A DNA stretch of 27,146 nt from a virus. Its lineage: Duplodnaviria; Heunggongvirae; Uroviricota; Caudoviricetes. Made by a program: the position numbers and the translations under genes. Shown one piece after another: positions 1,308 through 2,365 of this stretch; the stretch's first letter is position 1; each line of letters starts with the position of its first letter. The stretch lies in the IMG/VR virus record IMGVR_UViG_2531839485_000010; one strand, written 5' to 3'. A model generated the notes under the pieces. The model did not search any database. It was not told the origin of the DNA and worked only from the letters and a program-made list of their open reading frames with translations.

Positions 1308-2365
1308 ATGAAATCTAGCACCAAACAAGATGTAGGGATACAATATTTAAGGGGGGTATCTGCTTTATATGTCGTATTTTTCCATTTTAGAGAGTTTTTA
1401 GATAATTTTTTGCCAATAGCTATGTTGGGTCAAAAATTTTTTAGCAATGGCGCTTTCGGTGTTGATATGTTTTTTATAATTAGCGGATATATTATTTCTC
1501 TTTCAACAGAAAAAAAGACAACTCAATTGTTAAGGGATATATCATAAAAAGATTTTTCAGAATATATCCTGCTTATTTCATAGCACTCTCTATTTTGATT
1601 ATTTTATCCCCAATAAAATATTCTCACCATGATATTTTACGTTCATTTATGATGATCCACCCTGATTATCAATATAATGCACCTTACTTTGGCTATGGTG
1701 TACTATTTACAGCATGGACATTAACATACGAGATATATTTTTATATAATATTTCTAATAGGTATGTTTTTCTCACACAAACATCGCATTATATTTACATC
1801 AACAATTGCAATATTTGCTATGATATCAATACAGCTTATTTTCAACAAATCAATAAACATTTTCCATCAGGAACAAATTAAAAATGGCGCAGGGATATTG
1901 AATGTCCCAGGAAATATAATGGTTATAGACTTTATATATGGAATGTTTATTTATAAGATTAGAAATCATTTAAAATTAAATAAATATTCTATCGCAATAT
2001 CATTTTTACTTATATCAATTGGATTTATAACAATACAATCAGGAGTAAACGCTGGGCATGGTCCACTGCAATACGGGCTTTACTCCCTAATGATTGTTCT
2101 AGGGGTTGTTATGTACGAGAAAAATAACAAAATTACCGAGATTAAGCCATTGGTTTTTCTTGGAGATATCTCATACTCAGTTTATTTGTATCATGTGATA
2201 ATTGCTACATGTGCATATTCACTCCTATTAAAAATAGGATTTTCAGGATTATCTATGTTCTCTATGATGACAGTTTTATCAATATTTCTTGCGTATATTT
2301 CATATGTTTTAATTGAAGTTCCATCAGTTAAGGTAGGGCATTTAATGTTAAAAAAACAAACGTAA
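1308..2365 (+). pseudogene. oac: Acyltransferase family 3 (O-antigen acetylase, Oac-like) integral membrane protein, split by a frameshift (fragments 1308..1547 and 1595..2365)
   Basis: Fragment 1 (GVDMFFIISGYIIS) and fragment 2 (upstream extension reads KRFFRIYPAYF, then many hydrophobic helices) together give about 335 aa, the size of acyltransferase-3 enzymes. The frames rejoin if the A7 run at 1510-1516 is read as A8. Region is strongly AT-rich compared with the phage structural genes. Sits between int and tailspike as oac does in Sf6. Confidence 0.7.

Follow-up and report, generated by a model that had tools for sequence, protein, structure and literature searches.

The 27,146-nucleotide (nt) stretch of DNA analyzed here (the window; IMG/VR record IMGVR_UViG_2531839485_000010) carries, at 1308-2365, the two pieces of a single acyltransferase-3 (AT3) gene that is split at a run of seven adenines (A7, 1510-1516). 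The reading that we favor, at a probability of about 0.7, is that this run is a recurrent slippage hot spot at which a loss-of-function A7 allele has been fixed in one lineage, and that it is not a dedicated high-frequency switch. Its history would run as follows. A standalone AT3 membrane O-acetyltransferase, carried as an AT-rich accessory gene (a "moron") between the integrase and tailspike genes of a P22/Sf6-like prophage, would have lost one A from an A8 run by replication slippage; translation of the resulting A7 allele would stop after 79 codons, parting the R-X10-H motif of the enzyme from its RXXR motif and turning the gene OFF; and A7 appears to be fixed in the window's enterotoxigenic Escherichia coli (ETEC) lineage. 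Slippage has also struck this run, and four other homopolymers of the acetylase and tailspike genes, independently in near-identical copies elsewhere, the picture being that of a gene conserved across species, yet lost repeatedly within strains. Reversion of A7 to A8 should be possible in principle, and a small full-length fraction could arise from the A7 allele by -1 ribosomal slippage on A_AAA_AAG or by transcriptional slippage.

The anatomy of the split is uncomplicated. The A run spans codons 68-70, with A8 in frame and A7 and A9 out of frame. The product of the upstream open reading frame (ORF) runs to ...ISLSTEKK, continues out of frame as TTQLLRDIS and stops, while the +1 frame is open from 1481 to a stop codon at 2363-2365. 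Adding one A to the run fuses the two frames into a protein of 352 amino acids (aa) with the junction ...ISLSTEKKDNSIVKGYIIKRFFRIYPAYF..., exactly as the first-pass annotation of this sequence had written it. An A8 allele also exists in nature: E. coli O19:H7 730V1 carries a gene annotated as an intact 354-aa acyltransferase that is 99.8% identical to the window over 1221 nt, and its existence establishes the split as a real -1 frameshift rather than a chance pair of ORFs. Only three differences separate the two sequences over that span: A8/A7, a synonymous A/G difference at 1891, and position 2363, where the AAA codon of the intact allele is TAA in the window, so that the frame ends two codons early and the last residues, KG, are lost. 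The window haplotype is accordingly denoted A7, 1891A, 2363T; the stop-gain at 2363 accompanies the frameshift in the window's lineage.

That the missing A might be an error of sequencing or assembly, the true sequence being A8 and the gene intact, had been among the options raised in the first pass, and indel errors on some sequencing platforms do classically fall in homopolymers. The A7 haplotype nevertheless recurs in several independent Illumina assemblies at >200x coverage, which excludes this option; we consider it almost certainly wrong. The exact window haplotype is found in an IMG/VR contig (L003), in the Logan assembly of SRR446899 (L005), and in GCA_000357005.2 and GCA_000357225.2 (L006, L007). 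Thirteen contigs carry a gene call for exactly the 79-aa product (P0121), and six carry a 238-aa C-terminal one (named E. coli P0299438.5, P0299438.11 and others); a 267-aa gene call of the 3' fragment is likewise present in public assemblies. P0299438 designates ETEC colonies of one patient, sequenced on the Illumina HiSeq2000 at >200x; 6 of the 10 colonies formed one clone (PMC4462620).

What the frameshift does to the enzyme follows from the placement of its motifs. The repaired protein matches the Pfam profile Acyl_transf_3 (PF01757) over profile positions 2-325 of 326 (E 8e-32; 111 bits, with a cut-off of 31) and PHROG 3333, "O-acetyltransferase" (E 8.5e-67); no NCBIfam model matches it, and it consequently receives no finer functional name. 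The defining and essential motifs of AT3 proteins are R-X10-H in the first transmembrane helix (TMH1; Arg14/His25 in OafB) and RXXR at the cytoplasmic face of TMH3 (PMC9833829). Both are present here: R15 and H26 (RGVSALYVVFFH) lie inside the 79-aa 5' fragment, while R82-F-F-R85 comes after the frameshift and before the earliest codon at which translation could restart, placing the frameshift between the two. (A crude hydropathy scan does not resolve the individual transmembrane helices of the ten-helix AT3 fold.) Rescue as a split protein, by restart of translation on the 3' piece, is ruled out: the downstream frame contains no ATG, GTG or TTG between 1481 and 1595, so that every restart product lacks RXXR, the first canonical start codon being the TTG at 1595, past that motif. 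Neither fragment holds both essential motifs, and the A7 gene is therefore OFF unless it is recoded.

The behavior of the run in relatives was followed by comparing window 1153-4400 with 27 related loci, a sample assembled by way of variant proteins and not free of clonal duplicates. The run is A8 in most of them, and A7, A8 and A9 all occur among alleles that are at least 99.7% identical. A9 is confined to one of the compared loci (L011). A7 is present on two haplotypes: that of the window, and the second main one, represented by L008/L012 and L009, of which L008 and L009 are Logan contigs. Single-nucleotide polymorphisms (SNPs) of that second haplotype lie on both sides of the A7 run in L008, 28 upstream in int and at least six downstream; independent slippage is on that account more parsimonious than import, although a double crossover within 946-1890 could have carried A7 into the second haplotype, which we regard as the less likely course.

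The A run is not singled out in this respect. Every indel in the compared 3.2 kb sits in a homopolymer, including the changes C6 to C7 and T8 to T7 in the tailspike gene; those in the AT3 gene are listed in Table 1. The T5 alleles (L017-L020, partly named O19:H7) give pieces of 56 aa and 301 aa. The 364-aa variant P0127 fits A8 in the second A7 run of the gene, which would generate its new tail, ...KKTNERLNIKNVLHGQ, a match obtained by translating the window sequence, rather than P0127 DNA, by hand. One copy, P0131, is disrupted by a 10-nt deletion. In the E. coli copies of the AT3 gene, at least seven indel events are set against about seven substitution events; with so few substitutions, homopolymer indels are no fewer than all substitutions combined. 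Roughly one quarter of recorded copies look disrupted, a rough figure because the sample was drawn via variant proteins. Homopolymer slippage is the main route by which this gene is lost, and since the other acetylase and tailspike runs also slipped independently, the A run qualifies as an ordinary homopolymer hot spot. The Salmonella "AT 8+mers" provide a close parallel: A/T runs of at least 8 nt inside genes differ between close relatives and create pseudogenes (PMC8538453). The difference is that the Salmonella work is a survey of chromosomes, without the present gene and prophage.

The tailspike gene supplies further instances of slippage, reported here in their own right. In many relatives whose tailspike SNPs are otherwise identical (L002, L010, L011, L017, L018, L020, L024, L026, L027, L029-L031), its T8 run at 3737-3744 (A8 on the coding strand) is shortened to T7, splitting the protein into 203 and 401 aa; T8, with an intact tailspike, is found in the window, in L001/L028, L023 and L025. 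Many strains thus have an intact acetylase beside a broken tailspike; the window has the reverse. The C6 run at 2990-2995 is C7, a frameshift, in metagenome locus L029. In L011, a locus from a human-gut metagenome, a 5-nt deletion (window 871-875; about 2220-2280 of the locus) splits the integrase into 296 and 75 aa; combined with the A9 of its acetylase gene and the T7 of its tailspike gene, this marks the L011 prophage as decaying at several genes. In the sibling P0299438 assembly L007, a T>A change at window 4229, near the 5' end of the tailspike gene, goes with a tailspike called at 518 aa instead of 607.

A tract that takes three lengths in nearly identical alleles is also what a contingency locus would produce, A8 being a selected slipped-strand switch that sets acetylation reversibly ON (A8) or OFF (A7, A9). 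In that case lysogens would alternate a state that evades phage and immunity with an unmodified state, as with neuO in prophage CUS-3. We judge both the selected switch and the alternation that it would serve to be unlikely, without being negligible. A7 has arisen at least twice, the tract lies early in the gene, as it does in many phase-variable genes, and precedents exist, both in this prophage slot (neuO of the CUS-3 record, which has 19 AAGACTC repeats) and in the same enzyme family (the phase-variable AT3 genes oafA of Haemophilus influenzae and oafB of Salmonella; PMC9558356). The length of the run is nevertheless what composition predicts: synonymous-codon shuffles of the AT3 gene contain an A/T run of at least 8 nt in 51% of cases, so that selection on tract length is rejected (P = 0.51). 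Shorter runs (G6, T6, C6) and the tailspike T8 slip too, and the 10-nt deletion of P0131 is a disruption that slippage cannot revert. All of the window-haplotype contigs examined, which come at colony level from several isolates of one patient's clone, are A7. Moreover, in E. coli with proficient mismatch repair, the mutation rate of an 8-nt A run is orders of magnitude below that of classical contingency tracts. (The literature on the E. coli indel rate as a function of run length yielded a qualitative statement and no number.) Of the switch proposed in the first-pass annotation, then, the polymorphism of the tract (A7/A8/A9) and its repeated slippage have been borne out; the like behavior of the other homopolymers, and a length that matches composition, count against the rest. 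The alternative offered there, a plain pseudogene, is favored by the uniform A7 of the examined haplotype contigs, by the absence of the repaired 352-aa protein of the window haplotype from a collection of 15 billion proteins, and by the additional stop-gain two codons before the end.

Several observations weigh against a slippage hot spot with fixed loss, and should be set beside this evidence. The tri-allelic tract, and indels that rival or outnumber substitutions, form a pattern that is equally expected of a contingency locus. The A8 run and all the other runs are kept in the 94%-identical ortholog of Escherichia whittamii, although at 5.6% divergence 8 bases should stay unchanged in about 63% of cases, and their conservation is uninformative. 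Finally, the allele frequencies are rough because the loci were drawn through variant proteins, with clonal duplicates among them.

The qualification that the A7 gene is OFF unless recoded has to be taken seriously, because the deletion of one A creates a slippery heptamer. In the phase of the ORF that starts at 1308, the A7 allele reads GA A_AAA_AAG, and a -1 shift on this sequence continues GAC AAC TCA, so that ...EKK is followed by DNSIVK... and the exact native 352-aa enzyme is rebuilt. Among the observed tract variants only A7, the one seen more than once, places the heptamer in frame. It might then be that A7 is still meaningfully expressed, through a -1 ribosomal shift or through the addition of an A by RNA polymerase, and is "low" rather than OFF. 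A_AA.A_AA.G ranks with the most efficient E. coli -1 heptamers (PMC4066793), a frameshifting level of over 1% is quoted for A_AAA_AAG (PMC10861913), and C_AAA_AAA in an over-expression vector rescued one-base deletions at 25-60% (PMC1851650). The stimulators of such shifts are nonetheless missing here. The 20 nt upstream of the heptamer (ATTATTTCTCTTTCAACAG) contain no element resembling a Shine-Dalgarno (SD) sequence, and downstream folds are not significant (z of +0.96 for 1517-1566, -0.86 for 1517-1600 and -1.5 for 1490-1620); without stimulators, heptamers gave 2-10 times a background of 0.055% in a lacZ assay (PMC4066793). The in-frame A8 is, in addition, the majority and ancestral state, that of the E. 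whittamii ortholog included, so the heptamer arrangement is not a conserved programmed signal. We therefore rate meaningful expression of A7 as improbable. The comparison with the E. coli dnaX site makes the same point: the A7 allele has the identical slippery heptamer in the correct phase (PMC1851650, PMC4344849), whereas the SD-like element upstream and the strong stem-loop downstream of the dnaX heptamer have no counterpart at the A7 allele, where the heptamer was made by mutation and is not conserved among relatives. Judged from the sequence, a small leak from the A7 allele is plausible; programmed recoding is unlikely. A shade more improbable than meaningful A7 expression itself is a three-state rheostat in a mismatch-repair-proficient enteric bacterium, A8 being ON, A9 OFF and A7 "low" through slippage on A_AAA_AAG; were it real, the recurrent change of A8 to A7 would be selected as a way to dim serotype conversion by the prophage without abolishing it.

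Returning to recurrent slippage with fixed loss, the question becomes what has been lost. By analogy with Oac of phage Sf6, the AT3 enzyme most likely adds acetyl groups to the host's O-antigen or to a different surface polysaccharide; we infer the O-antigen specifically from position and family. Such a modification would alter the serotype and make the receptor unavailable to related phages. The gene is an uncharacterized addition to the well-known prophage surface-polysaccharide acetylases, which are often found inactivated. Its slot between int and the tailspike gene is that of oac in Sf6 and of neuO in CUS-3. The core of the first-pass annotation, AT3 fragments that are joined by A7 to A8 in a P22/Sf6-like prophage slot, is in this way upheld; so are its description of the gene as strongly AT-rich (GC content 0.29, compared with 0.48 for the remainder of the window) and its suggestion of a lysogenic-conversion module, since this AT-rich accessory gene occupies the lysogenic-conversion slot of such a prophage.

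The resemblance to Sf6 extends to several particulars: Oac, an O-antigen rhamnose III 2-O-acetylase that brings about serotype conversion, is also a standalone AT3 membrane protein (333 aa, compared with 352-354 aa here) encoded by a gene of low GC content; slot and orientation are the same, co-directional with int and convergent with the tailspike gene, from which a terminator separates it (one is annotated for oac in the Sf6 record); the neighboring integrases share 98% identity; and the two proteins can be aligned over the FFxISGY and RxxR region. It does not extend to the protein as a whole. BLASTP finds a single significant segment, 36% identical over 118 aa (E 1e-10), the remainder not being alignable, and Sf6 is not among the 31 phage records listed by tblastn with the AT3 protein. 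A match this limited means that the AT3 protein is not an ortholog of Oac. The label "oac-like" given in the first pass consequently holds only for family, size and genomic position. The present gene also differs in being frameshifted, and since the receptor-binding part of the tailspike differs as well, the substrate sugar presumably differs from that of Sf6.

NeuO, the phase-variable polysialic acid O-acetyltransferase of CUS-3 in E. coli K1, is the more distant comparison. It belongs to a different enzyme family, the soluble hexapeptide-repeat type. Its gene likewise encodes an acetyltransferase and occupies, as an accessory gene, the int-X-tailspike slot of a P22-like prophage; which frame is read depends on slipped-strand changes in a simple repeat close to the 5' end (PMC3046976). 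The deposited CUS-3 record annotates only a repeat region at neuO and no coding sequence. That repeat is made of 19 AAGACTC heptanucleotides as opposed to an 8-nt homopolymer, and high-frequency switching is documented for neuO, not for the present gene. Closer in enzymology are oafA of H. influenzae and oafB of Salmonella, which encode AT3 enzymes, subject to on/off switching, that acetylate lipopolysaccharide or lipooligosaccharide; in H. influenzae Rd, oafA was first seen as a frameshifted gene (PMC9558356). The switches of these genes are tetranucleotide repeats (oafA) or epigenetic promoter methylation through Dam and OxyR (oafB), not a short A run, and OafB has a fused SGNH domain that is absent from the present AT3 protein.

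The gene is rare, and its intact form is under constraint. It is found in one of 5,426 complete E. coli genomes (730V1, the cleanest example of an intact copy). Among recorded copies the A8 allele is the common one: its protein, P0001, has been recorded on 63 contigs, has entries in 108 blocks of the assembly collection and represents a 56-member cluster, beyond which the next nearest member of the family is 43% identical. A near-identity search of phage records with the gene gives no match, the best phage protein match is 35% identical, and a pattern of tract-flanking sequence has no match among genomes representing one per species. The E. whittamii ortholog has 94.4% nucleotide identity and a ratio of nonsynonymous to synonymous substitution rates (dN/dS) of 0.16, on the strength of which the intact gene is judged to be under purifying selection and to encode a working protein. 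This ortholog (L014-L016) lies outside a full prophage, with a fragment of 119-173 aa downstream at the place of the tailspike, and it adjoins genes that we take, on their Pfam domains, to be torR and torT. The Shigella flexneri serotype 1b gene oac1b is also reported to be inserted next to torT (PMC3630932), which suggests that the E. whittamii ortholog and oac1b share a second insertion site near torT.

As it stands, the present case is one of an ordinary frameshifted accessory gene. Its wider interest derives from the fact that prophage surface-polysaccharide acetylases change serotype, phage receptors and antibody recognition, so that whether such a gene is ON, OFF or switchable matters for genome-based serotyping and for the prediction of phage-host relations. 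In one uncharacterized E. coli AT3 gene, nature has provided a series (A7, A8, A9, G7, T5 and a deletion) in nearly identical backgrounds. The series is a test bed for whether an 8-nt A run in E. coli is an occasion for rare pseudogenization or a usable switch, and it also bears on whether a deletion-created A_AAA_AAG measurably rescues expression.

Table 1. Features at the integrase-acetylase-tailspike end of the window (coordinates are window positions; a point denotes a feature assigned to neither strand).
Feature	Position	Strand	Remarks
Prophage integrase (IntS / Sf6 type), 383 aa	1-1152	+	Pfam Phage_integrase, Phage_int_M, Arm-DNA-bind_3
5' AT3 fragment	1308-1547	+	79 aa: 70 native codons and 9 out-of-frame codons, then TAA
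G6 run in AT3 gene	1351-1356	+	G7 (frameshift) in L004, L010, L013
T6 run in AT3 gene	1437-1442	+	T5 (frameshift) in O19:H7 and others; P0126, P0124; L017-L020
A7 homopolymer, -1 frameshift site	1510-1516	+	Intact alleles A8; one relative A9
A_AAA_AAG, dnaX-type -1 slippery heptamer	1511-1517	+	Zero frame of A7 allele (GA A_AAA_AAG), phase of 1308 ORF
3' AT3 remainder	1517-2365	+	+1 frame, 282 codons and stop; RXXR (R82-R85, nt 1551-1562)
Second A7 run, near AT3 3' end	2350-2356	+	A8 fits 364-aa variant P0127
Hairpin, GC-rich, T/A runs on both flanks	2448-2468	.	Minus-strand terminator match; T6 run follows on plus strand
P22-type tailspike, 607 aa, intact	2475-4298	-	Pfam Head_binding, residues 1-112; PHROG tail spike families

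The integrase next to the AT3 gene marks the end of the prophage proximal to the left attachment site (attL). In relatives it adjoins a tRNA-Arg gene and yfdC, and we take the tRNA-Arg beside yfdC to be the argW site. Sf6 integrates at tRNA-argW (PMC3630932). A spacer of 155 nt separates int from the AT3 gene; a promoter scan of this spacer finds no sigma-70 site of consensus grade, and TTCACT-17-TATAAA at about 1186-1214, picked by eye, is no more than a candidate. The hairpin between the convergent acetylase and tailspike genes is probably a bidirectional terminator. Just after the int stop codon, at 1154-1180, lies an interrupted palindrome, AGACATTTTCT-CTAG-AAAATGTCT; in 730V1 (L001 4754-5962) its central CTAG is the insertion point of an IS5-like insertion sequence, ISKpn26, which there stands between int and the intact acetylase gene. 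The remainder of the window belongs to a mosaic P22-like prophage that carries ant along with genes for ejection proteins, coat, portal, terminase, Q and NinG. Two ORFs, 6597-7658 (minus strand, 353 aa) and 7665-8129 (plus strand, 154 aa), lie between the ant/immI region and the genes for the ejection proteins and match only phrog_2384 and phrog_2651, both of unknown function, and no NCBIfam model; they may be another pair of accessory cargo genes.

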